DNA of 64,000 nucleotides from Patescibacteria group bacterium (GTDB lineage Bacteria > Patescibacteriota > Microgenomatia > Levybacterales > GWA1-39-11). Positions within the stretch are counted from its first letter, which is position 1. Each line of letters opens with the position of its first letter. The translations under genes were made by a program, and so were the position numbers. A model generated the notes under the pieces. The model saw only the letters and a program-made list of their open reading frames with translations, searched no databases and had not been told where the DNA came from. Location: NCBI GenBank assembly GCA_035545675.1, contig DASZYA010000004.1:6519-70518 (forward strand), in the 5' to 3' direction. Shown one piece after another: positions 38,177-49,151 of this stretch.

Positions 38177-38250
38177 TGCTCCCCCGCGTGGACTCGGACC
38201 ACGAACCTTATTCTTAACAGGAATCTGCTCTACCATTGAGCTACAGGGGA
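38177..38250 (-). tRNA. tRNA-Asn (anticodon GUU)
   Basis: Hand fold of the reverse complement: acceptor TCCCCTG/CGGGGGA, D-arm GCTC-AATGGTA-GAGC, anticodon loop CTGTTAA, T-arm CGTGG-TCCGAGT-CCACG, discriminator G. Confidence 0.7.
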
Positions 38251-39473: not shown

Positions 39474-40109
39474 ATGGATTCTATTAAAGAAAAAATAGAA
39501 GAATTCTTCTCCAAATATAAAATCCAAAAATATAAAAAGGGAGAAATTTTGGTTCGTGCCGGAGATGACCCTGCTGGCATTTTCTATCTTAAATCTGGAC
39601 TTGTTCGAGAATACGCAATTTCCAAGACCGGGGAAGAGGTTGTTGTAAATATATTTAAGACCGGGGCTTTTTTCCCAATGTCTTTTGCAATTAACAAAAC
39701 TCCCAACACATATTTTTTTGAGGCCATGGAAGATCTTATTCTAGTACGAGCGCCAAGTGAGGATGTTGTTGAATTCATAAAAACAAATTCAGACGTTTTA
39801 TTTGACCTTCTTAGACGTGTATATCTGGGAACAGATGGATTATTATCTCGTATGGCTTATCTAATGTCTGGAAGTGCAAGCGAAAGGTTGATTATTGAGC
39901 TTATAATTACTGCCAAAAGATTTGGTACCAAAGAAAGTAGCGAAATTATGGTTAGTACTACAGAAAAAGATCTTGCAACTCAAACCGGAATCACGCGCGA
40001 GACCGTAAGTAGAGAAATAAAAAAACTTAAAGACAAAGGGCTAATAGATTTTGGAAAGCATAGTCTTGTAATAAAGGATATAGCAAAGCTAGAGGAAGAG
40101 ATCTATTAA
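39474..40109 (+). CDS. Crp/Fnr-family transcriptional regulator
   Basis: cNMP-binding beta-roll (ILVRAGDDPAGIFYLKSGLVREY) and a C-terminal HTH (DLATQTGITRETVSREIKKLKDKGLI). Confidence 0.75.
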   Translation: MDSIKEKIEEFFSKYKIQKYKKGEILVRAGDDPAGIFYLKSGLVREYAISKTGEEVVVNIFKTGAFFPMSFAINKTPNTYFFEAMEDLILVRAPSEDVVEFIKTNSDVLFDLLRRVYLGTDGLLSRMAYLMSGSASERLIIELIITAKRFGTKESSEIMVSTTEKDLATQTGITRETVSREIKKLKDKGLIDFGKHSLVIKDIAKLEEEIY

Positions 40110-40456
40110 TTAATAGATTTAGTTATTACTTCTCCAGTTGGTTGAATTCTTCTCCTTATCCTCCCATCTGGAAGTCCTGTTGGAAGTAAGTATCCTTGCC
40201 AATTACCCTCCCCAATAAATAATTCTAAGTGTTTGAGGTCTACAAAATCCGGTTCATTTTTTACTTCATAAAGCCTATAGGGGCCAGCAGAAACTGTGAG
40301 TCTTGGATTAAACTTTTTTTTGGTTGCAACCAAAATATCTCCAATCTCTTCTGCTTCTATCCATGCGAATCTATCCTTTTCATCTAGTGTAAGTATTTTT
40401 GTTTTATCAAAGGTTTCTATCAGAGAATATTTTCCTTGTTTTATTAGTCTTATCAT
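40106..40456 (-). CDS. hypothetical protein
   Basis: ORF; a CRP-like site lies ~30 nt upstream. Confidence 0.3.
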   Translation of the reverse strand: MIRLIKQGKYSLIETFDKTKILTLDEKDRFAWIEAEEIGDILVATKKKFNPRLTVSAGPYRLYEVKNEPDFVDLKHLELFIGEGNWQGYLLPTGLPDGRIRRRIQPTGEVITKSIN

Positions 40457-40484
40457 AGAGTCAAATATATACTTCTTGTAGATA

Positions 40485-40500
40485 GAAATATGTGATTTTA
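40485..40500. promoter_or_regulatory. CRP/FNR-type palindrome TGTGA-N6-TCACT
   Basis: A direct read: tgtgattttaatcact. Confidence 0.45.
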
Positions 40501-41106
40501 ATCACTCTAATTTATTGATTTATTTCATCGATTCAATCTCTTAATAGTTTTAATATTGGTTTATGAGAAAGATGAGAAAAGAAAGTAGAAATTTTTTAAG
40601 AGAAATTTTAGAAGAAATTGAACTAACAATTGCACCGTTTATCAGAATTTTAATGATAAATCCAAATAAGAAATATGTTTAACAAAATATATACATTTTT
40701 AAATAAAGTTCAAGCCCTCACTCTTTTTATGGGACTATTTATAGTTTTTGCTGTAATTCACAATTTGTTTTATGGATTTTTAAGTTTTGAGGAGCCCGTA
40801 TTTTTTGTTTTAGCTCTATTTTTCTTATTCATGTCATTTATATGTTTAATTTTTCAGGTTAGAACAAAGAAGGTTTTCTAGGCAGAGATTGGAGGTGAAT
40901 CATATGGTTTATGAAATAACAGTTCCAGATTATCAGAGAATAATTAAGAAAGAACAAAAGAAAACATTGCTTGAGCAGCTTAAGGCAATACTTTGGGGAA
41001 GGAACAAGACTCCAGATTTTGAAGATGGGGAACCAACGGATGAGCCTGACGAAGAAGGTTATAGGGTAAATTACCCAGCATATAACAGGGTTCATTAACG
41101 GGTCTA

Positions 41107-41754
41107 TTGTTATGGTTAAAATTTGGCTATACTTTTTGTATGGGTAAAATCGCGGGAGTTTTATTTGCTTTAGCTGGCTTTGTAATCTTAATGGGTATCA
41201 CAACTGCTGAATCTTTTTATCCAGGCTATAATCTTCACAGTAGTTATATTAGTTGGCTTGGAGCCACGCCTCCGCCAAACATTATTATTAAGCAGCCTTC
41301 TGCAACCATCTTTGATTTATCTATGGTTTTTGCAGGGATTTTAATTCTTGCCGGAGGAATATTCTTTTATCGTAGATATGGAAACAAGATCCTTTTTGCT
41401 CCGATTCTTTTTATGGGCTTAGGAACTCTTGGAGTTGGTTTGTTTCCAGCTTCTCATGCATCTATTCATCCCTTGATTGCTGGGATCGCTTTTGCTGCAG
41501 GAGGAATTGCAGGGATTCTCTCTTATAGAAAAACCACTGCTCCATTTAGGTATTTGGCTCTGGTTCTTGGATTGGTGACTCTCGGCTTTTTAATACTTGG
41601 GATCCTTGATCCAAAAATCCTCTCTCCGCTTGGTATTGGGGGAGCTGAACGTTGGGTTGCTTACCCAATAACTATTTGGCTAATTTTATTTGGAGGATAT
41701 CTCATGGGTCCAAGACCTACCTCAAAAGCTTCTAAAATCAAAAGTAAAAGATAG
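41107..41754 (+). CDS. hypothetical 6-TM membrane protein
   Basis: Hydrophobicity. Confidence 0.35.
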   Translation: MLWLKFGYTFCMGKIAGVLFALAGFVILMGITTAESFYPGYNLHSSYISWLGATPPPNIIIKQPSATIFDLSMVFAGILILAGGIFFYRRYGNKILFAPILFMGLGTLGVGLFPASHASIHPLIAGIAFAAGGIAGILSYRKTTAPFRYLALVLGLVTLGFLILGILDPKILSPLGIGGAERWVAYPITIWLILFGGYLMGPRPTSKASKIKSKR

Positions 41755-42183
41755 GGCTTGATAGCGCCCAAAACCCTCATTTGTAAGAGCAATTTAGACC
41801 TATAGCATGCCACTTTACAGTAGGATTCACTTATGATATATTCCACCTATAGGAAAGATGTTTAGCCGCTATTTTGCATGGCGGTAATGAACGCTTTCTT
41901 TTTTTTGGTTTTGCAGAATTCGTGCCTAAAATTGCATTTAGGTTTTGAGCTTTGCATTCGCACTTTGAAAACTAGATTTTTGGAAAGAAAATAATTTTAA
42001 TTTTTAATATATGTAACGCAGAATTTTGACTGCGGCGCTCTAGAAATAAAACGCATTGTTTTTAGAAGGCCGTGGTCAAAGTGGCTAATTGACTAAATAT
42101 AAGGCATAGAAAGGATATAGCCAACCAAAAGGGACATGTAGACAGCAATATCGTTACGTGAATAGTTCTTTAAGGACCGAACA

Positions 42184-44547
42184 TTGAATAGGACAGATCG
42201 TTCCGACCCGCCAGTCAACGAGACCTTCAAGACCTTCGTTACGCCTTATGTTGCTCCCTTCGAGCGATTCGGGCAGAACGACGGCAGAGAGGTCGGCGGC
42301 AAGGTAGCCAACATCGGTGAGATGATTCGGGCAGAAATACCCGTACCCGATGGGTTCGCCATCAAGGTGAGCGCATGGGATCGTTTCATCGAGTACAACA
42401 ACCTGATGCCGCGCATCCTCGAACTTCACGAGGGTCTCGACTTCAGGAACGAAGGCGAGCGTCATGAGCGCTCAAATCACCTCATGGCACTCATTAAGGG
42501 TGCTAGTATGCCTCCGGATGTCGCTCAAGACATCAGGCAGGCGTACCGTCTGCTCTCTGGTTCGACCGACGTACGAGTGGCGGTAAGATCTTCGGCTACG
42601 GCTGAGGACCTTGCTAAAGCTTCGAGCGCCGGCGAGTACGACTCCAAGCTCAACGTTTACGGAGAGGTGGACGTCGTAGTTGCAGTACAGGCGGTATTCG
42701 CGTCAGTGTTCACTGCTCGCGCGATGCTCTATCGCGATCAAAACGGCATTCCCTTCACGGGAGTTAAGATGGCCGTTGCGGTTATGAGGATGGTTCAGTC
42801 CGTAAGGTCTGCCATCGTTTTCACCGCGGACCGCATTTCCGGCAACCGAAACGTTATGTCGATGACAATCGGCATGGGTCTCGGCGAGACGCTGGTCCAG
42901 AGCACGGTTACTGCCGACTTCATCAAGGTCGACAGGGCGAGGCGCACGATCATTTCCAGGATAATCGGTAGTCAAACTCACCAGATGGTGTGGTCCGATG
43001 ACCTGCGAAAGAACATCGACGTTGAGATCGAACCCGAACTCCGGGACGCTCCCAAGGCCGATGAGGTGCAGACCCTGGATTTGGCCGACATCTGCGAAAT
43101 GGTGGAACGACACTACGGGCGTCCCCGCGACATCGAAGCCGCGATGGCCCCCAATGGTCGTTGGTACATCGTTCAGTCACGTGACTGTACGACTCCCCTG
43201 ATCGAGGACGAGCCCGAACCGGCAGTCGCGCTCAGGCCGTTTGTTACTGGTATCGAAGCTTCCGCAGGGATTGCTTCGGGCCCAGTTCGAATCATCCGGA
43301 CGCTGCAAGATCTTCACGCGTTCAGCGAGGGAGATATTCTCGTCACCGAGATGACCACTCCCGACATGCTTGACGAGATGGAGCTGGCCGCCGCCGTTGT
43401 TGCGGAAATCGGTACCTCCAACTCGCATGCTGCAATCGTTTGCGGAGAGATGGAAACCCCATGTGTTGTGGGAGCGGACGGAGTTATGTCTCTCCTTCGC
43501 GATGGGGACATCATCACCGTGGATGGTAGCCATGGCAAGGTGTATAGGGGAGAAATTCCTGAGCTCTTGGCCTGGCACGATCGGCGTGAAGCTCGGCTGA
43601 CCAAGCTGGCAGAAGAAGGTGAGAAGGTAAAAACCCGCACAAAGATTGGGTTGATCGCCGCCACGCCTCGAGCTGCTGTCAAGCTGGCCCGCCGAAACGT
43701 CGACATGGTATGTCTCTATCGTACGGAGCTAGCGGTTAGCCGCCTCAAGTTGCACCCTCGCGTCTTCGACGCTCAGGGCCGACGAGAGGTGTTCATTCGA
43801 AGCCTGGTTGACTCCATGTCTGCCTACTGCGAGGCATTTTTTCCCCGTTACCTTGCAGATAACAGCAAGGGCCTCGTGGTCGTTCGGACTCTCGACTACA
43901 AAGATGACGAGATGGCTCGACTCGAAGGCTCGGAGCTGTACGAAAAGCCCGGCAAGAACTTTATGCTGGGTAAGCGGGGACTTTTCCGTTACGAATGGGA
44001 TCATGTTACACACGAGATGGAGACTGAGGCACTCAAACGAGTCGCCCAGAAGTATCCTAACCTCGTCGTGATGGTGCCGTTCCCGCGGACGCCCGAAGAA
44101 CTCGGACGTGTCACCGCCAAGTTGGTTGAGCGAGGCCTCAATGTCCCTCTGTGGGCTATGGCTGAGGTACCGCTAACCATTATGTATCTCGAGGAGTTTG
44201 TTGATGCTTGCCAAGGCCGACTCAAGGGTCTGTCGATCGGTAGCAACGATGCGCTTCAGGGACTCATGATGGTTGACCGCGAAGATCCAATTCTCGCCGC
44301 CCACGCTGAGTACTCGGAGAACCATCCGCTCATGCGTCGGACTTTCGTCGACATCGTTCGTCGAGGTAAGGCAAGGGGTCTCACGGTCAGTCTGTGTGGT
44401 AATGCTGTCAGCAAATTCCCGGAAATCGCCGCGGATTTGGTGGAAGCAGGAATTGATTCCATTGGGGTTGATCCGCGCAAGGCTGACATCGTTCGCAACA
44501 TCGTCAAGGAGACTGAGGAGAGGCTCGGCATTACGCTCGAAGCATAA
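42184..44547 (+). CDS. ppsA: phosphoenolpyruvate synthase (pyruvate, water dikinase)-like PEP-utilizing enzyme; sits in a ~58% GC island
   Basis: N-terminal GGKVANIGEM (PPDK_N ATP-grasp); phosphohistidine swivel domain GTSNSHAAIVCGEMETPCVVG; C-terminal TIM-barrel PEP-binding domain (SIGSNDALQGLM; SLCGNAVSKFPE). 787 aa, similar to E. coli PpsA at 792 aa. Its codon usage and GC are wholly unlike the flanks. Confidence 0.75.
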   Translation: MNRTDRSDPPVNETFKTFVTPYVAPFERFGQNDGREVGGKVANIGEMIRAEIPVPDGFAIKVSAWDRFIEYNNLMPRILELHEGLDFRNEGERHERSNHLMALIKGASMPPDVAQDIRQAYRLLSGSTDVRVAVRSSATAEDLAKASSAGEYDSKLNVYGEVDVVVAVQAVFASVFTARAMLYRDQNGIPFTGVKMAVAVMRMVQSVRSAIVFTADRISGNRNVMSMTIGMGLGETLVQSTVTADFIKVDRARRTIISRIIGSQTHQMVWSDDLRKNIDVEIEPELRDAPKADEVQTLDLADICEMVERHYGRPRDIEAAMAPNGRWYIVQSRDCTTPLIEDEPEPAVALRPFVTGIEASAGIASGPVRIIRTLQDLHAFSEGDILVTEMTTPDMLDEMELAAAVVAEIGTSNSHAAIVCGEMETPCVVGADGVMSLLRDGDIITVDGSHGKVYRGEIPELLAWHDRREARLTKLAEEGEKVKTRTKIGLIAATPRAAVKLARRNVDMVCLYRTELAVSRLKLHPRVFDAQGRREVFIRSLVDSMSAYCEAFFPRYLADNSKGLVVVRTLDYKDDEMARLEGSELYEKPGKNFMLGKRGLFRYEWDHVTHEMETEALKRVAQKYPNLVVMVPFPRTPEELGRVTAKLVERGLNVPLWAMAEVPLTIMYLEEFVDACQGRLKGLSIGSNDALQGLMMVDREDPILAAHAEYSENHPLMRRTFVDIVRRGKARGLTVSLCGNAVSKFPEIAADLVEAGIDSIGVDPRKADIVRNIVKETEERLGITLEA

Positions 44548-44549
44548 CT

Positions 44550-44885
44550 CTGATGTCTGTTCAGTGAGCCCGCCCGAGTTTCAGGACGAGATAAGCTCAC
44601 AGCTTCCTGATCACGGTGTGACGCGTTACGTAGGTGTCTCACCTGCAGGAAGAGATCTTTGGCATAAGCCAGATCAATCCGAGGCCTTAGGTCTCACTCC
44701 GGCGTCTCGCCAAGTTCGCGCAAGGCGCCACCATCGGGTCCCCAAAAGGACAAGCCCGACTCTTTCCAGAGTCTAGATCATCCCCTGCCGTTTGGTAGAC
44801 CGCTTGCGTATGCGAGTTGTTGCCATTCGGCGGGGGATTTTTTTGGGGAAAATTGAAAAAATAAAAATCTTCTATATAATCCACA
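44550..44885. other. GC-rich non-coding tail of the island with inverted repeats and a terminal G-rich/T-run (possible terminator at ~44825-44850)
   Basis: cttcctg..caggaag and ggtgtgac..gtctcacc inverted repeats at 44590-44655; ggcgggggattttttt at 44826-44842. Confidence 0.3.
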
Positions 44886-44887
44886 AT

Positions 44888-45385
44888 ATGCCAAAAGAAA
44901 CACAGCAAGAAATAAAGCTTAGGTTATTCCATGAGAATGCAGATAGATTTTATAGACCTCCCCTGATGATGGATATTGCCTTAGAAGAAGCTAGAAGAAG
45001 AAGGTTACAGTCGAGATTTACGAATAAAGATCTTTTTGAGGCAGCACTAGGTACTTATGCAGTTATTAAGCAACAAGATATTCATGACATGTTAGAACCT
45101 CAAGAACATGTATATCCTTGGACAGAATCTACTTCTCCTGTTGAGTCGGATGATATAGAGGCAGGTCCGGTAATTCTTTTTGCAGAGCAAGAGCCGTCTG
45201 TTCCACATCTTCCAAGACTTGAACATGTAACTCTTGATATTGGAGAGGCGAGTTATAATTTTGATAGGAATATTAGTGGTGTAGTTACATCATATGTTAA
45301 TCAGAGGGAACAAAGTCTTGCCCCAGAAGAAGCAAGGGATATTGTTGAAATTCTTTACAGAATGCTTGTAGTCAACGCTAGATAG
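44888..45385 (+). CDS. hypothetical protein (start assigned to first low-GC Met; ORF open from 44792 through the island tail)
   Basis: ORF only. Confidence 0.3.
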   Translation: MPKETQQEIKLRLFHENADRFYRPPLMMDIALEEARRRRLQSRFTNKDLFEAALGTYAVIKQQDIHDMLEPQEHVYPWTESTSPVESDDIEAGPVILFAEQEPSVPHLPRLEHVTLDIGEASYNFDRNISGVVTSYVNQREQSLAPEEARDIVEILYRMLVVNAR

Positions 45386-45387
45386 AT

Positions 45388-45960
45388 TTAAAAAGTGGGA
45401 TCTAATTTTACACTTTGAACTAAAGTCTTTGCATCTGCTTCATATTGTCCCCAGTTTTTAACTAGAGTTTCAAAGTTTACTATATATAATTTATCTGTCC
45501 TCTCATTTCCAGTTACTTCCATGTAGTTCATTTTTGGTTTAAAGGCAACATTTCCCATTGGTGTTCCTCCTGTCTCGAATAGTCCTCCAACGGTGAATAA
45601 AAATCTATTATTAGTATCACGCCTTCTTATAAGAGGCCCTCGGAGTTTCATAAATGGAGATTTCATTAAATTTTCTGCATAGTCAAAGACGCCAGCCTTA
45701 TAAAGTGCGCTGAGATTATCTATTGCGCCAACTTGAAAAAGCGTTTTGTTAGCGTCTTTACTTGATGTTATTATCGTTCGTTTATCTAGGATTACAGTAG
45801 GCGTTTTTGCTAATTGATCAGGACTCATTGTAAAGGCATAAGAGTTATTAGCCTCTGATTCGCGCGCATTCCATGTGTCAGGAACTAAAATTTCCGCATG
45901 AATACTGGGTAGTGATTTGGGCACAAGTCTAAGAGCTGTTTCTTTCTGATCTATGGTCAT
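45388..45960 (-). CDS. hypothetical protein
   Basis: ORF only. Confidence 0.3.
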   Translation of the reverse strand: MTIDQKETALRLVPKSLPSIHAEILVPDTWNARESEANNSYAFTMSPDQLAKTPTVILDKRTIITSSKDANKTLFQVGAIDNLSALYKAGVFDYAENLMKSPFMKLRGPLIRRRDTNNRFLFTVGGLFETGGTPMGNVAFKPKMNYMEVTGNERTDKLYIVNFETLVKNWGQYEADAKTLVQSVKLDPTF

Positions 45961-46025: not shown

Positions 46026-47246
46026 TTATTCGAGGTAGTCGCGGAGTTTATTACCTCTACTTGGATGACGAAGTTTTCTGAGTGCTTTTGCTTCAATTTG
46101 TCTTATACGTTCACGTGTAACCGCAAACATTTTTCCTACTTCTTCCAAAGTCTTTGGTTTTCCGTCCCTAAGCCCAAATCTTTCTTCTAATACGCGTCTC
46201 TCACGATCAGAAAGAGTCGAAAGAACTGCGTTGAGCTGCTCTTTTAGAAGTCCACGAGATGCTGTATCAAACAAAGTTGGAGCTGTAATATCATAAATAA
46301 AGTCACCAAGATATGAATCTTCCTCGTCTCCTACTGGAGTATCAAGAGATGCTGGCTGTTGGCTAATTTTGATGATCTCACGAGCTTTATCTGGCTCTAT
46401 TTCAAGAATTTCTGATATTTCTTCTGGACTTGGTTGACGGCCAAGCTCTTGCATGAGTTTTCTTTGAACTCTCATAAATCTATTGATGTTTTCAACCATG
46501 TGAACAGGAATACGAATTGTTCTTGCCTGGTCTGCAATTGCACGAGTTATAGCCTGTCTAATCCACCAAGTAGCATAGGTTGAGAATTTAAATCCTTTTT
46601 TCCAGTCATACTTTTCAACAGCACGGATCAATCCCTGGTTTCCTTCTTGAATGAGATCGAGTAATGTCATTCCACGTCCCACATATTTCTTAGCAATAGA
46701 AACAACAAGTCTAAGATTACTTTCAACAAGCTTCTTGCGAGCTTTTTGATCTCCTTTTTCAATACGTTTTGCAAGTTCTACCTCTTCTGGGAAGGTAAGA
46801 AGTGGAATTCTTCCAATTTCTTTGAGATACATGCGGACTGGATCAGTAACTGCTCCACCCTGGATGATATTAAGTGCTTCTAATTCACGTTCAAGATCTT
46901 CAATTGATCTTTGTGAATCTTTTTCTTCTTCTACTGTTTCAAATATATCTATACCCTTTTTGAGTAATTGATCATAAAGATAATCAAGATCAGCTATATG
47001 ATCTTCTGGTTTTTGAAATGCATTTAATATTTCCTCTTGGGATATATAGCCACGTTTCTTTGCAAGAGCTAGTAGATCTTCAATTTTGGAGTGTTTTGGA
47101 GTATTGGTTCCTCCCTTTTCTTTTGTAGCTTTTGTTTTTACAACAACTTCTTCCTCAACCTTTTTAGCAGCTGTTTTTTTGGCGGCCTTTTCTTTAGTTG
47201 ATGGGGATTTTTTGGTTTTTACCACAGAATTAGAAACCTTAGGCAT
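46026..47246 (-). CDS. rpoD: RNA polymerase sigma-70 factor RpoD
   Basis: Region 2 [43 protein letters not shown]; region 4 HTH; a basic N-terminal tail. Confidence 0.9.
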
Positions 47247-47360: not shown

Positions 47361-49151
47361 CTAGCTTAGGAGTTTGGAGTATTTATTAAATTCTGTTTCT
47401 AGCTCTTCTACTTTTTGGCTGTCCTTTTCTTTTTCTGCTTCACCAATTAACGTTCCAAGTTTTTTAAGTTTTGCTCGGACGCTTGTAGTTTTGGCTTGCT
47501 TTGCAATCTTTTCAATTTCTGTTTTTAGTTTCTCATCACTGTTAAAATCAGCAATCGGTGCAATTGAAGCTGTATCAAAAGCCATTTTGAGTTCACTTGG
47601 TAAATATGAGGCAAAATGGCTTGCATCAAATGTAGTGCTAGTTTGCGTATAGTCTTCAAGTTTTTTTAAAACCTTCTCGTATGAGGGGTTTGTGAGGCCA
47701 ATCCCATCCAATACTGTTTTTGCGGTTACTAAAAATTCTTTAGGACGGGGCGATTGAAAAATCAAAGATAAAAGATATGTTTCAATTTTCTCCTCTTTTG
47801 TTAGTTGGCGATTAATATCTGATACTACTTTTTTGGGTTCTGGTTTTGTGCTCTTTTGAGCCTGACGTGTAACTGAGTCAAGAGAAACGTCAAGTTTTTC
47901 TGCCAATTTTTTAAGATAATGCTCTTTTATAACCTCGTTTTCTATTGCGGCAAGATATGGTAGAGTTCTGTCTAGTATCTTTTTCATTCCCTCAGCGCTC
48001 GCCTTATCTGATTCTTTTATCGCTGAGTCAATAATGAAGTCATAAACATTTATGTCATCTCTCATTGCCTTCTTAAAAGCTGGCGCGTTTTCATTTAGTA
48101 GTTCATCTGGATCTTTACCTAGAGGAGGAATAATAACTGTGGCTGTAATTCCCTCATGTTCAATTAATTGAATTGATCTACGCTGTGCTTCTGTTCCGGC
48201 CTTATCTGTGTCAAAACAAAATACAAATTTTGGAGCAAAACGTTTTAGAAGTTTTATTTGATTTTCTGTTAAGGCAGTTCCTTTGACTGCGACTATATTT
48301 GTAATTCCTTCCTTGTGAGCCGTTATTACATCAAACTCTCCTTCAACAATTATTACTTTCCCCTCTTTTTTAATTCCATCACGAGCAAGATTTATTCCAA
48401 AAAGAGTGTCACCCTTTACATAAACCGGAGTTTCACGAGTGTTTACATATTTTGGTTGGGTTTCAGCATTTAACCCACGGCCCGAGAAGGCAATAACATT
48501 TCCACGGGCATCAATTATTGGAAAGATTATTCTACTTCTAAAAAAGTCTGATACGTAGCGTCCACGCCTAAAACCAAGACCCGCATTAAGAACTTCATCC
48601 TCTGTGTATTTTTTCTTGCCAATAAGATATTTGACTAACGCATCATTGTCTGGTGCAAACCCAAGATTGAAAGTTTTTATAAGCGGAATAGACATTTTTC
48701 TTTCATTCAATAAATAATCTAGTGCTTTTTTTCCAACCGGATGGCTAAGCAATAGATAGTTATAAAATTGGGAGGTAAGATGATTTAGGGAGTAAATTGA
48801 CTCTTGTTTCTTCTCTCTTTCTGTTCTGGCTGCTGGGGCGCTAAGCTTTATTCCAGCCCGCATTGCAAGTTCTTTCAGAGCTTCTCCAAATCCAATATTT
48901 TCGTACTCTTCTACAAAAGTAAAAACATCTCCTCCTTTTTGACACCCAAAACAGTGCCAAATTTGACGATCCGGAGATACTACAAAAGAAGCGCTTTTTT
49001 CATCATGGAATGGACAATTGGATTTAAAGTTACGTCCTGCTTTCTTAAGCTGAATATAGCTTCCAATTACATCAACTATATCTAGTTTTTGTTTTACTTT
49101 TTCTATATCGTCCATGGGTATAACAAACAACTGACAATTGACCACTGACAA
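47361..49151 (-). CDS. dnaG: DNA primase DnaG (ORF opens at a TTG at 49151; the conserved N-terminus begins at the ATG at 49114)
   Basis: Zinc-binding CPFHDEKSASF..WHCFGCQKGGD; TOPRIM IIVEGEFDV..DTDKAG. Confidence 0.85.
   Translation of the reverse strand: MSVVNCQLFVIPMDDIEKVKQKLDIVDVIGSYIQLKKAGRNFKSNCPFHDEKSASFVVSPDRQIWHCFGCQKGGDVFTFVEEYENIGFGEALKELAMRAGIKLSAPAARTEREKKQESIYSLNHLTSQFYNYLLLSHPVGKKALDYLLNERKMSIPLIKTFNLGFAPDNDALVKYLIGKKKYTEDEVLNAGLGFRRGRYVSDFFRSRIIFPIIDARGNVIAFSGRGLNAETQPKYVNTRETPVYVKGDTLFGINLARDGIKKEGKVIIVEGEFDVITAHKEGITNIVAVKGTALTENQIKLLKRFAPKFVFCFDTDKAGTEAQRRSIQLIEHEGITATVIIPPLGKDPDELLNENAPAFKKAMRDDINVYDFIIDSAIKESDKASAEGMKKILDRTLPYLAAIENEVIKEHYLKKLAEKLDVSLDSVTRQAQKSTKPEPKKVVSDINRQLTKEEKIETYLLSLIFQSPRPKEFLVTAKTVLDGIGLTNPSYEKVLKKLEDYTQTSTTFDASHFASYLPSELKMAFDTASIAPIADFNSDEKLKTEIEKIAKQAKTTSVRAKLKKLGTLIGEAEKEKDSQKVEELETEFNKYSKLLS

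Follow-up and report, generated by a model that had tools for sequence, protein, structure and literature searches.

The window analysed here, a stretch of 64,000 nucleotides, belongs to a metagenome-assembled genome (MAG) of a Microgenomates-type Patescibacterium. Most of it is AT-rich. About two thirds of the way along, however, lies a GC-rich island with a single intact gene for a PEP-synthase-like protein, followed by a structured non-coding tail and an intrinsic terminator. The features of the locus, together with its AT-rich host neighbours, are collected in Table 1.

Table 1. Features of the island and its surroundings (positions are those of the window; SD, Shine-Dalgarno)
Feature	Position	Strand	Evidence
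tRNA-Asn, only tRNA in the window, ~4 kb from the island	38178-38250		
DUF998 membrane-protein gene, AT-rich host flank, left of the insertion site	41107..41754	+	Pfam DUF998, E 4.8e-21
Upstream intergenic region, AT-rich, GC 0.36	41755..42183	+	sequence read, promoter scan, GC
Promoter-like site upstream of pps	41814-41842		promoter scan
SD AAGGA, 7 nt before the TTG start	42172-42176		sequence read
Divergent PEP-synthase-like gene, island core, 787 aa, TTG start, intact	42184-44547	+	Pfam domains
Non-coding 3' tail, GC 0.54, ~300 nt, strongly structured	44548..44850	+	RNA fold, terminator scan
Intrinsic-terminator hairpin closing the 3' tail	arms ~44781-44790 and ~44828-44837; T-run 44838-44844		terminator scan
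Promoter-like site before the 165-aa ORFan, strong, 11/12	44853-44880		promoter scan
ORFan, AT-rich, 165 aa counted from ATG (197 aa in the ORF list, which starts it at TTG 44792)	44888..45385	+	
ORFan, AT-rich, 190 aa, downstream of rpoD on the rpoD strand	45388..45960	-	
rpoD, host flank	46026-47246	-	Pfam sigma-70 domains
dnaG, host flank	47361-49151	-	Pfam primase domain

The gene islet and its product

The 3' tail folds much more stably than its shuffled versions (minimum free energy -135.2 versus -100.7±5.25 kcal/mol, z -6.57), and Rfam gives no match for it. Neither ORFan finds a match in Pfam, NCBIfam or PHROG, and neither occurs in the related contigs L097-L101 (by tblastn for the 165-aa ORFan). 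The database entry for the 190-aa ORFan is a hypothetical protein from this MAG. The relatives of the RpoD protein encoded beyond them carry the names Levybacteria or Patescibacteria.

The first-pass annotation of this DNA had pointed out that no integrase or tRNA gene flanks the island and that the nearest tRNA is 4 kb away, and this is indeed the case. The island holds no recombinase gene (integrase or transposase), target-site duplication, terminal inverted repeat or tRNA target. The candidate duplications and inverted repeats at its edges turned out to be just short, low-identity chance repeats. Such hallmarks of mobility are frequent, but not obligatory, in acquisitions of single genes.

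Along the protein, Pfam recognizes PPDK_N (ATP-grasp; E 4.5e-79), PEP-utilizers (the mobile His domain; 2.7e-23), and PEP-utilizers_C (1.1e-31), in this order, and the whole chain aligns end to end with the solved PEP synthases 9dae, 8a8e, and 2ols. The catalytic phospho-carrier H415, located in TSNSHAAIV, aligns with GMTSHAAIV of 9dae and is invariant in both family alignments, and the C-terminal motifs NFMLGKRG, IGSNDALQ, and SLCGNA (which holds the catalytic Cys) are aligned with their counterparts in the same structure. The protein therefore has in common with PpsA, as defined by NF005057, TIGR01418, and the three structures, the domain order, the catalytic His, MLGxRG, GSND, and the C-terminal Cys. 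It differs in two places next to the catalytic His: two positions ahead of it, Asn replaces the Thr that is regulatory in E. coli-type enzymes, and behind it CGE stands instead of the SRE of PpsA.

The scores of the protein lie below the cut-offs of both curated PpsA models (569.7 bits against 598 for NF005057, and 541.1 against 739.75 for TIGR01418), and it is therefore filed as PpsA-like. The proteins P0003 and P0005 are above both cut-offs. Labels of this kind are used for the proteins compared: P0001 is the window protein, and P0002 and P0003 are the products of pps genes in other Microgenomates genomes. Thus, the earlier description of a complete PEP synthase-like gene with three domains is upheld, but the gene is not a plain ppsA. 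An identical protein is on record as a "PEP/pyruvate-binding domain-containing protein" of a Patescibacteria MAG. The pyruvate, phosphate dikinases (PPDK, TIGR01828) form a homologous family with the same pyruvate-PEP interconversion, and a high-GC PPDK gene occupies the equivalent slot in the related lineage L113; the window protein, in contrast, scores only 100.7 bits where the PPDK model requires 843, and has a PpsA-type architecture. A homologue of the rifamycin phosphotransferase type was also considered and rejected, given a score of 248.9 bits where NF041857 requires 999, a match limited to the N-terminal domain, and the presence of PEP-utilizers_C. The protein is a divergent PpsA-like member of the pyruvate, water dikinase family rather than a certified PpsA.

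Composition of the island

The GC content is 0.56 between 42,150 and 44,850, against 0.377 in the rest of the window. In 300-nt windows it rises from 0.35 to 0.53-0.59 at ~42,150 and returns to 0.35 at ~44,850. In 50-nt windows, the 5' edge coincides with the start codon (42,170-42,190), while the 3' edge falls inside the terminator (44,810-44,830). The abrupt change and reversion described at first reading are therefore real, and so is the contrast, although the figures given for it (58% and 35%) were slightly off. Elsewhere in the window, a second GC bump at ~1400-1900, reaching up to 0.675, is caused by an Ala/Gly-rich low-complexity linker.

For the pps-like gene as a whole the GC content is 0.563, and for its three codon positions 0.633, 0.416, and 0.640. 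The third-position value compares with 0.288±0.033 in 46 host ORFs (z=10.7), in agreement with the GC-rich codons noted before as unlike those of the host, while the second-position value lies within 1 SD of the host genes. The surplus is mainly found at third codon positions, that is, at synonymous ones. The tetranucleotide comparison proposed by the first-pass annotation as a check gave the same picture: the distance of the island from the host has a z of 14.5, and after normalization for GC the signatures of island and host correlate with r=-0.04/-0.01, compared with about 0.80±0.05 for background windows. As a control, pps genes compared with their own flanks in 39 genomes give a GC-normalized r of 0.805±0.053. 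Likewise, in 78 ordinary loci with a gene of this family, the GC of the gene exceeds that of its flanks by 0.004±0.022 and by no more than 0.056, whereas the island gene exceeds its flanks by 0.186. The deviation is far outside chance. The GC3 of the gene falls on the line relating GC1/GC2 to GC3 in 82 control pps genes (z=-1.0), and no compositional amelioration towards the AT-rich host is detectable.

The usual cause of a GC-rich block in an AT-rich genome is an rRNA gene. This cause, or that of another structured RNA, was rejected here: at the gathering or E<=10 thresholds Rfam returns only chance-level matches for the island, and the sole Rfam match in the window is tRNA-Asn.

Insertion site, relatives, and recurrence

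The best comparison for the locus is contig L099, whose RpoD is 94%, DnaG 68%, and neighboring FBA 89% identical to those of the window (RpoD 94% and DnaG 65-68% when L097 and L099 are taken together). In L099 rpoD and a DUF998 gene, with a product 54% identical to that of the window, are adjacent, whereas in the window 4.27 kb with pps and the two ORFans lie between them. In L097/L098 and L101 other genes follow rpoD, and there is no pps there. The site is a variable region just downstream of rpoD, and the pps segment represents an insertion, judging from the empty site in the closest available relatives. A similar high-GC ppsA at the same locus in relatives, which according to the first-pass annotation would have indicated older, vertical inheritance, is thus the opposite of what was found. 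The position of the 5' composition boundary exactly at the start codon is unusually tidy for a random illegitimate insertion.

The only close relative of the protein, with 58% identity, comes from a second Microgenomates genome, which is likewise low in GC and in which its gene likewise stands out as GC-rich. In a search over representatives of ~15 billion proteins, none outside its own cluster (defined at >=50%) is more than 42% identical, and the relatives beyond the 58% match come mostly from Chloroflexota. The named relatives from outside the CPR all belong to Chloroflexota/Dehalococcoidia and are 37-40% identical over the full length; for the Chloroflexota relatives as a whole the range is 37-42%. 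PpsA genes of these bacteria have a GC range like that of the island, and the island signature resembles that of the gene flanks in some genomes of Chloroflexota (r up to 0.76). In contrast to the island, however, such genes match their own flanks (GC difference 0.004±0.022, signature r 0.81), and their identity to the window protein is too low for the status of donor. The protein search that had been suggested as a way to the donor clade ended in a Patescibacterium (58%), followed by sequences of <=42%; the sampled sequences include no donor or donor-like lineage by which a donor clade could be named. In an unrooted neighbor-joining (NJ) tree, P0001 and P0002 sit on long branches and P0003 joins beside them, a branching compatible with one CPR clade. 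Long branches are typical of fast-evolving CPR proteins and would fit a long residence in the CPR better than a fresh import. Viral contigs contained neither a relative of the protein nor the RNA element motif, a scan of metagenome contigs with patterns from P0001 and P0002 gave no relatives (the patterns being unspecific), and the five contigs retrieved with a custom ABC-F pattern did not serve to place pps, being too short or non-syntenic.

The island is not a solitary case. The genes for P0002 (GC 0.61, flanks 0.43) and P0003 (0.54, flanks 0.39) stand out in the same way from hosts that are both Microgenomates, where the taxonomy of the L002/L011 hosts is inferred from named ABC-F relatives. 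In a second Microgenomates family, three lineages share a syntenic locus with a conserved leader, but each has another high-GC gene behind it: a divergent PpsA, a canonical PpsA, and the PPDK of L113 (TIGR01828, E 1e-41). The canonical PpsA is 43% identical, against 50-90% for the flanking proteins, and the PPDK in the same slot proves outright gene replacement at that locus. Moreover, the leader blocks and the 3' RNA elements of L003 and L011 are homologous, yet they abut very different coding sequences. Several independent sequencing runs have given contigs with a GC-rich dikinase gene in a low-GC Microgenomates genome, and un-ameliorated, GC-rich pyruvate/PEP dikinase genes are present in at least four Microgenomates lineages. 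The pattern at the leader locus suggests a fast turnover of the pyruvate/PEP step through repeated import.

Between strains, the P0002 gene shows 2 differences in 2,379 nt, both synonymous, although its flanks are more divergent. The tail adjacent to pps and the downstream region differ by ~15%, which shows recombination breakpoints at the gene end. An apparent replacement of pps in L102/L103 by an "861-aa ORF without Pfam match" proved to be an artefact of gene calling, an antisense reading frame without stops that overlies the GC-rich pps, and P0002 is present there at 100%. As for the island itself, nhmmer detects no match between its upstream region and the conserved leaders of L003/L011/L113; two short motifs look alike by eye, but 28% of control tiles score equally, and the homology was rejected. 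The 3' tail matches the 3' RNA element of L003/L011 marginally (11.4 bits, E 0.01 in 7 kb), mostly over the terminal hairpin.

Origin and role of the islet

Taken together, the island is probably a horizontally acquired gene islet of a Microgenomates-type Patescibacterium, consisting of one intact gene, its GC-rich 3' tail, and a terminator. The source would almost certainly be another organism, and the event one of an ordinary kind. That the gene is instead native, with its GC raised by amino acid composition or by an embedded structured RNA, deserves practically no credence. A linker of biased composition does produce the second GC bump of the window, and the island protein is somewhat rich in Arg, Ala, and Val, but codon-position analysis refutes this reading: the surplus is mainly one of GC3 (0.64 versus 0.29), GC2 is like that of the host, no RNA family matches, and ordinary pps genes stay within ±0.056 of their genome GC. 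Very improbable, too, is the chimeric join that had been offered as an option at first reading, in which an assembly or binning error placed a high-GC fragment in a Patescibacteria contig. The abruptness of the change at both ends and the metagenomic source of the genome would agree with such an error. It would nevertheless require that a single complete gene had been joined wrongly, yet precisely, at both of its ends, and the junctions are functionally coherent, with an SD and start codon on the 5' side and a terminator followed by the promoter of the next gene on the 3' side. Other Microgenomates lineages, sequenced in several independent runs, show this architecture too, and the independent, unitig-based Logan contig L001 equals window positions 41632-45445 at 100% over 3,814 bp, through both junctions.

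A more serious, though still unlikely, alternative is that of a long-resident CPR gene, which entered the Microgenomates long ago, was inherited or passed among CPR bacteria, and had its high GC actively maintained, the candidate forces being GC-biased gene conversion in a cassette prone to recombination and selection at synonymous sites. The only close relative is GC-rich and from Microgenomates as well, the ~15 billion proteins represented yield no high-GC donor, and the long branches of P0001 and P0002 with P0003 adjacent, the leader blocks and RNA element kept around very different coding sequences, and the recombination breakpoints of P0002 are all compatible with it. Against it, a local rise of GC in resident DNA should leave a partial host signature, and the correlation with the host is zero; GC1, GC2, and GC3 fit the equilibrium line that ordinary pps genes of high GC follow; the nearest relatives have an empty site at this locus; the PPDK replacement in L113 demonstrates turnover without any special force; and no known mechanism keeps one gene 35 GC3 points above its genome. 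Repeated import is likelier than an unexplained mechanism holding the composition of one gene far from that of its genome. Rather unlikely, for its part, is an exchangeable cassette, that is, a GC-rich dikinase coding module that circulates among AT-rich Microgenomates and stays GC-rich over long times, with a conserved host leader ahead of it and, in one family, a conserved structured RNA of 170 nt after it. If this were true, something would have to maintain the composition, for example biased gene conversion at a hot spot of recombination or mRNA selection.

Under horizontal acquisition, the source would be a genome of ~55-60% GC, most like those of Chloroflexota/Dehalococcoidia, whose composition and oligonucleotide signature the gene would have retained. 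The foreign signature and the empty site support the acquisition from a high-GC donor put forward by the first-pass annotation, but not its dating as very recent, which had been read from composition alone. In its new host, the gene would be expressed from host-like signals, namely the AT-rich upstream region, the SD AAGGA, and the TTG located at the 5' composition boundary. It is presumably functional, as indicated by the intact three-domain ORF, the catalytic motifs kept, and the near invariance of its sister P0002 between strains. The enzyme most likely moves phosphate via the conserved His between ATP/AMP and pyruvate/PEP, and the islet probably supplies this pyruvate/PEP step, which is missing in many CPR bacteria without pyruvate kinase. 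CPR bacteria often lack pyruvate kinase, and according to one proposal the interconversion of PEP and pyruvate is then carried out by a PEP synthetase (PMC7304191); the "gluconeogenic or anaplerotic" role first suggested is therefore only one option.

The islet would thus be a clean and well-bounded case of an ultra-small, reduced bacterium filling a hole in its central carbon metabolism by the import of a single gene. For the curation of CPR genomes, it is also relevant that the seeming "contamination" in this MAG is real biology. The wider dikinase pattern in Microgenomates, however, is a more interesting lead than this single islet.

Horizontal gene transfer is frequent in Patescibacteria (PMC12455944). 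A recurrent GC anomaly of the sort described here is reported neither in that study nor in PMC7304191, and GC content is unmentioned by Jaffe et al. The horizontally transferred genes and genomic islands of Patescibacteria (PMC12455944) and the laterally transferred glycolytic enzymes of the CPR (PMC7304191) are likewise instances of a metabolic gene gained while the donor is unrecovered, and the islet, like them, touches the patchy terminal steps of glycolysis in a streamlined CPR genome. It differs from those cases in being a single gene, without mobility genes, un-ameliorated, and ~19 GC points above its host.

A compositionally foreign block downstream of rpoD

Along the window, GC content (300-nt windows) climbs from ~0.35 to 0.53-0.59 near 42,150 and drops to ~0.35 again near 44,850, and at 50-nt resolution the edges of the island lie at 42,170-42,190 (5') and 44,810-44,830 (3'). 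Between 42,150 and 44,850 the GC content is 0.56, against 0.377 in the remainder of the 64-kb window, and the block holds one intact long ORF, pps, in agreement with the complete gene in a high-GC island described in the first-pass annotation. The GC surplus of pps is found at synonymous sites: GC1/GC2/GC3 are 0.633/0.416/0.640, compared with 0.504±0.040/0.363±0.054/0.288±0.033 in 46 host ORFs (z=10.7 for GC3, z≈1 for GC2). The gene exceeds its flanks by 0.186 in GC, versus 0.004±0.022 (maximum 0.056) in 78 ordinary loci of the same family, mostly from Chloroflexota. The tetranucleotide distance of the island is 14.5 SD from the window mean. When tetranucleotide usage is normalised for base composition, the island correlates with the host at r=-0.04, compared with 0.80±0.045 (minimum 0.65) for background windows and 0.805±0.053 (minimum 0.66) for pps against its own flanks in 39 control genomes. 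Since the deviation persists after normalisation, the whole signature of the island is foreign, beyond its GC level alone.

A GC-rich block of ~2.7 kb in an AT-rich genome has the classic appearance of an rRNA gene. This origin was rejected, as the tRNA-Asn gene is the sole Rfam match in the whole window and the island has no credible match at E≤10. A second GC bump (up to 0.675) at 1400-1900, within ORF 1281-2954, was also discarded as an island; here the GC content is amino-acid driven and stems from an Ala/Gly/Glu-rich low-complexity linker that precedes a transmembrane segment of an M23-peptidase protein. This ORF adjoins a gene for a TraG-like P-loop ATPase (119-1297).

Coordinates of features in the window and in related contigs (L numbers)
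Feature	Position	Strand	Remarks
tRNA-Asn	38178-38250	minus	sole Rfam match in window
650-nt gap holding AT-rich stretch	between ORFs 40106-40456 (minus) and 41107-41754 (plus)		
Promoter-like site in AT-rich region upstream of pps	41814-41842		promoter scan
pps ORF, 787 aa	42184-44547	plus	one long ORF of block; PPDK_N, PEP-utilizers, PEP-utilizers_C
Non-coding 3' tail of pps, ~300 nt after stop	44548-44850		GC 0.54
Hairpin and seven T's at 3' junction	~44781-44844		
Promoter-like site of next gene	44853-44880		11/12
Shared AT-rich leader of GC-rich genes	L003:4157-4520, L011:9435-9815, L113:760-1120 (minus strand)		
GC-rich structured element, ~170 nt	L003:7025-7195, L004:4621-4796, L011:12288-12453, L102:6220-6390 (minus strand)		

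The RpoD encoded near the island has its relatives in genomes named Levybacteria or Levyibacteriota, and from such sequence evidence the host can be assigned to the Microgenomates group of CPR bacteria. A chimeric assembly join, once considered as an alternative, is contradicted by L001, a contig of the independent Logan assembly of run SRR12170518, which is 100% identical to window positions 41632-45445 and spans both junctions. Both junctions are also functionally tidy: AAGGA stands 7 nt ahead of the TTG start codon of pps, where the composition changes, and the tail closes with a hairpin and T-run before the promoter-like site of the next gene.

The insertion site can be read from a relative, contig L099, which shares the gene order PfkB-FBA-RpiB-Rpe-beta-lactamase-dnaG-rpoD with the window (RpoD 94%, FBA 89%, Rpe 72%, and DnaG 68% identical). 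There, the DUF998 gene directly adjoins rpoD, whereas in the window the two are separated by 4.27 kb, comprising ORFans of 190 aa and 165/197 aa, both AT-rich and with no family match, together with GC-rich pps and its tail. To the left of the DUF998 gene, positions 40350-40950 are very AT-rich (GC 0.24-0.26). The other rpoD neighbourhoods of relatives (L097/L098 and L101) carry different genes after rpoD, and pps is absent from this position in all of them, as in L099. Because these neighbourhoods differ and do not contain pps, the region 3' of rpoD is variable in the lineage and pps is lineage-specific. In L101 (11134-21006) the genes that follow rpoD encode a second sigma-70 paralogue, a pair of serine recombinases, and NTPase or DUF4238 proteins, a content which suggests that integration is frequently targeted to this position in the lineage, as a hot spot. 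The island itself is accompanied by neither an integrase nor a tRNA target, in line with the earlier reading, and flanking repeats were not found either; the nearest tRNA gene is that for tRNA-Asn.

The encoded protein and its relatives

The product of pps (P0001) possesses all three domains of a PEP-utilizing enzyme, as first annotated, and can be aligned end to end with the solved PEP synthases 9dae, 8a8e, and 2ols. Its phospho-carrier His (in TSNSHAAIV) is conserved, as are the motifs MLGKRG, GSND, and LCGN, and the protein probably functions as a pyruvate, water dikinase. It is nonetheless only PpsA-like, scoring under both curated PpsA equivalog cut-offs (569.7 vs 598; 541.1 vs 739.75), which explains the cautious name given by NCBI. 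Two residues ahead of the catalytic His, Asn replaces the Thr that has the regulatory role in enzymes of the E. coli type.

Only about one in three CPR genomes was found to have pyruvate kinase, and PEP synthetase has been suggested as an alternative for the interconversion of PEP and pyruvate in them (Jaffe et al., PMC7304191). By this analogy, P0001 may act in the final glycolytic step rather than in gluconeogenesis. The PpsA-like character given in the initial annotation stands, and the gluconeogenic or anaplerotic role proposed there would be one option only.

In a word-indexed search of 5.8 billion clusters, the one close relative of P0001 is P0002 (58%), a divergent PpsA, followed by P0003 (43%), a canonical PpsA, and by matches of ~40%, mostly from Chloroflexota/Dehalococcoidia. 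An exhaustive HMMER search of 1.84 billion representatives gave nothing above 42% outside the cluster of P0001 itself, and among named species-representative genomes relatives reach only 37-40%, almost all in Chloroflexota. The search thus yielded Chloroflexota-type relatives but no donor clade. In a neighbor-joining tree, P0001 pairs with P0002 as its sister, both with long branches, and P0003 forms a separate deep branch nearer (~50%) to Chloroflexota-type enzymes.

A recurrent dikinase slot and its 3' RNA element

The genes for P0002 (GC 0.609, GC3 0.79, on contigs from several runs) and P0003 (GC 0.539, GC3 0.62) are likewise GC-rich, with flanks of ~0.43 and 0.39, respectively. The ABC-F proteins of their hosts have named relatives at 55-58% in Davies-, Levy-, Beckwith-, Woese-, and Shapirobacteria, which places these hosts in the Microgenomates as well. 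The two loci share one gene order (ABC-F, Zn-ribbon, LUD, HxlR, (CDF), pps), with flanking proteins 50-90% identical but Pps proteins only 43%. A third lineage, L113 (ABC-F 83%), keeps this synteny and has a block of GC 0.52-0.59 at the equivalent position, which codes for the N-terminal part of a pyruvate, phosphate dikinase (PPDK; TIGR01828, E 1e-41, vs 26 bits for PpsA).

The three loci (L003, L011, L113) share an AT-rich leader, whose common blocks are a promoter-like TTGTCAAC...TATACT, GGTTTTAGACCCATAGTG, a hairpin with a T-run after it, GCACTTTGAAAATTTGGTTTCG, a long CTTGATCGTGG...CCACGATCAAG hairpin, and GGGAAAGGAG; a Shine-Dalgarno site is conserved too, and the leader is succeeded by a short upstream ORF that varies. 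The genes behind this leader, all GC-rich, code for a divergent PpsA, a canonical PpsA, and a PPDK, so that one conserved slot has received three distinct dikinase genes. The arrangement has the look of gene replacement behind a fixed regulatory region, and one outright replacement or more is proven, as PPDK and PpsA belong to separate enzyme families.

Several further observations concern these contigs. Two strains compared at the P0002 locus (L003:2405-7750 and L004) form a divergence mosaic, with 13 differences in the 2.2 kb upstream of pps, 2, both synonymous, in its 2,379 nt, and 116 in 0.75 kb downstream; the breakpoint is the stop codon, which points to recombination at the 3' edge of the gene. 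A low-GC Microgenomates contig (L002:2112-2612) carries another small gene of high GC content (166 aa, GC3 0.84, GC ~0.65) with no Pfam or PHROG match, suggesting that such genomes hold several GC-rich imports. An 861-aa ORF lacking Pfam matches in public gene calls (L102:6364-8949, L103:2528-5113) is a gene-calling artefact, namely a stop-free antisense frame of pps whose opposite strand encodes P0002 at 100% identity.

Immediately 3' of the pps stop codon, four contigs of one Microgenomates family (L003, L102, L004, L011) contain a structured element with four hairpins and conserved single strands between them (ACGAAACC, GATCCACC, GACTCTTTCAA). Across these four sequences, 97% of cells are paired, against 31-52% in slid controls, and double-sided changes number 6, whereas shuffles give 1.8±1.1 (0/500 exceeding); on four sequences only, compensatory changes thus support the predicted fold. 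The element has no Rfam match and was not found downstream of the searched Chloroflexota pps genes or in viral contigs, and is a candidate new RNA motif known from these four sequences. The tail of the window pps is also strongly structured, with several hairpins 5' of the terminator (MFE -135.2 vs -100.7±5.25 kcal/mol in shuffles, z=-6.6); its match to the element model is marginal (11.4 bits, E 0.01 in 7 kb) and homology is not claimed. The tail may be a 3' UTR brought along from the donor or a functional RNA.

Recent import or long residence

The island is quite likely an un-ameliorated islet that a Microgenomates genome acquired horizontally, with a PpsA-like gene that is probably functional. 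A GC-rich gene could instead have circulated within CPR for long, GC-rich throughout, as no donor lineage is sampled, the nearest relative of P0001 sits in another CPR genome, and the P0001/P0002 branch is long. However, when GC3 was regressed on GC1 (and GC2) in 82 control pps genes, the window pps (z=-1.0), P0002 (+0.1 to +0.5), and P0003 (-0.7 to -0.95) all fell on the equilibrium line, with no amelioration detectable in any of them. The normalised signature of the island agrees at 0.72 with P0002, 0.69 with P0003, and up to 0.76 with some Chloroflexota flanks, but at -0.01 with the host. Together with the empty site in L099 and the replacement proven in L113, these results speak for import that was repeated and fairly recent, with fast turnover; long residence in CPR is unlikely. 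Of the very recent acquisition from a high-GC donor proposed at first, acquisition from a high-GC source is supported by the empty site and foreign signature, a fairly recent date is favoured, and no donor clade can be named.

Two leads deserve further attention: the slot for GC-rich dikinase genes that recurs in related CPR genomes, and the 3' RNA element found with it. The novelty of the acquisition itself is modest, since it represents a known kind of event (PMC12455944, PMC7304191).
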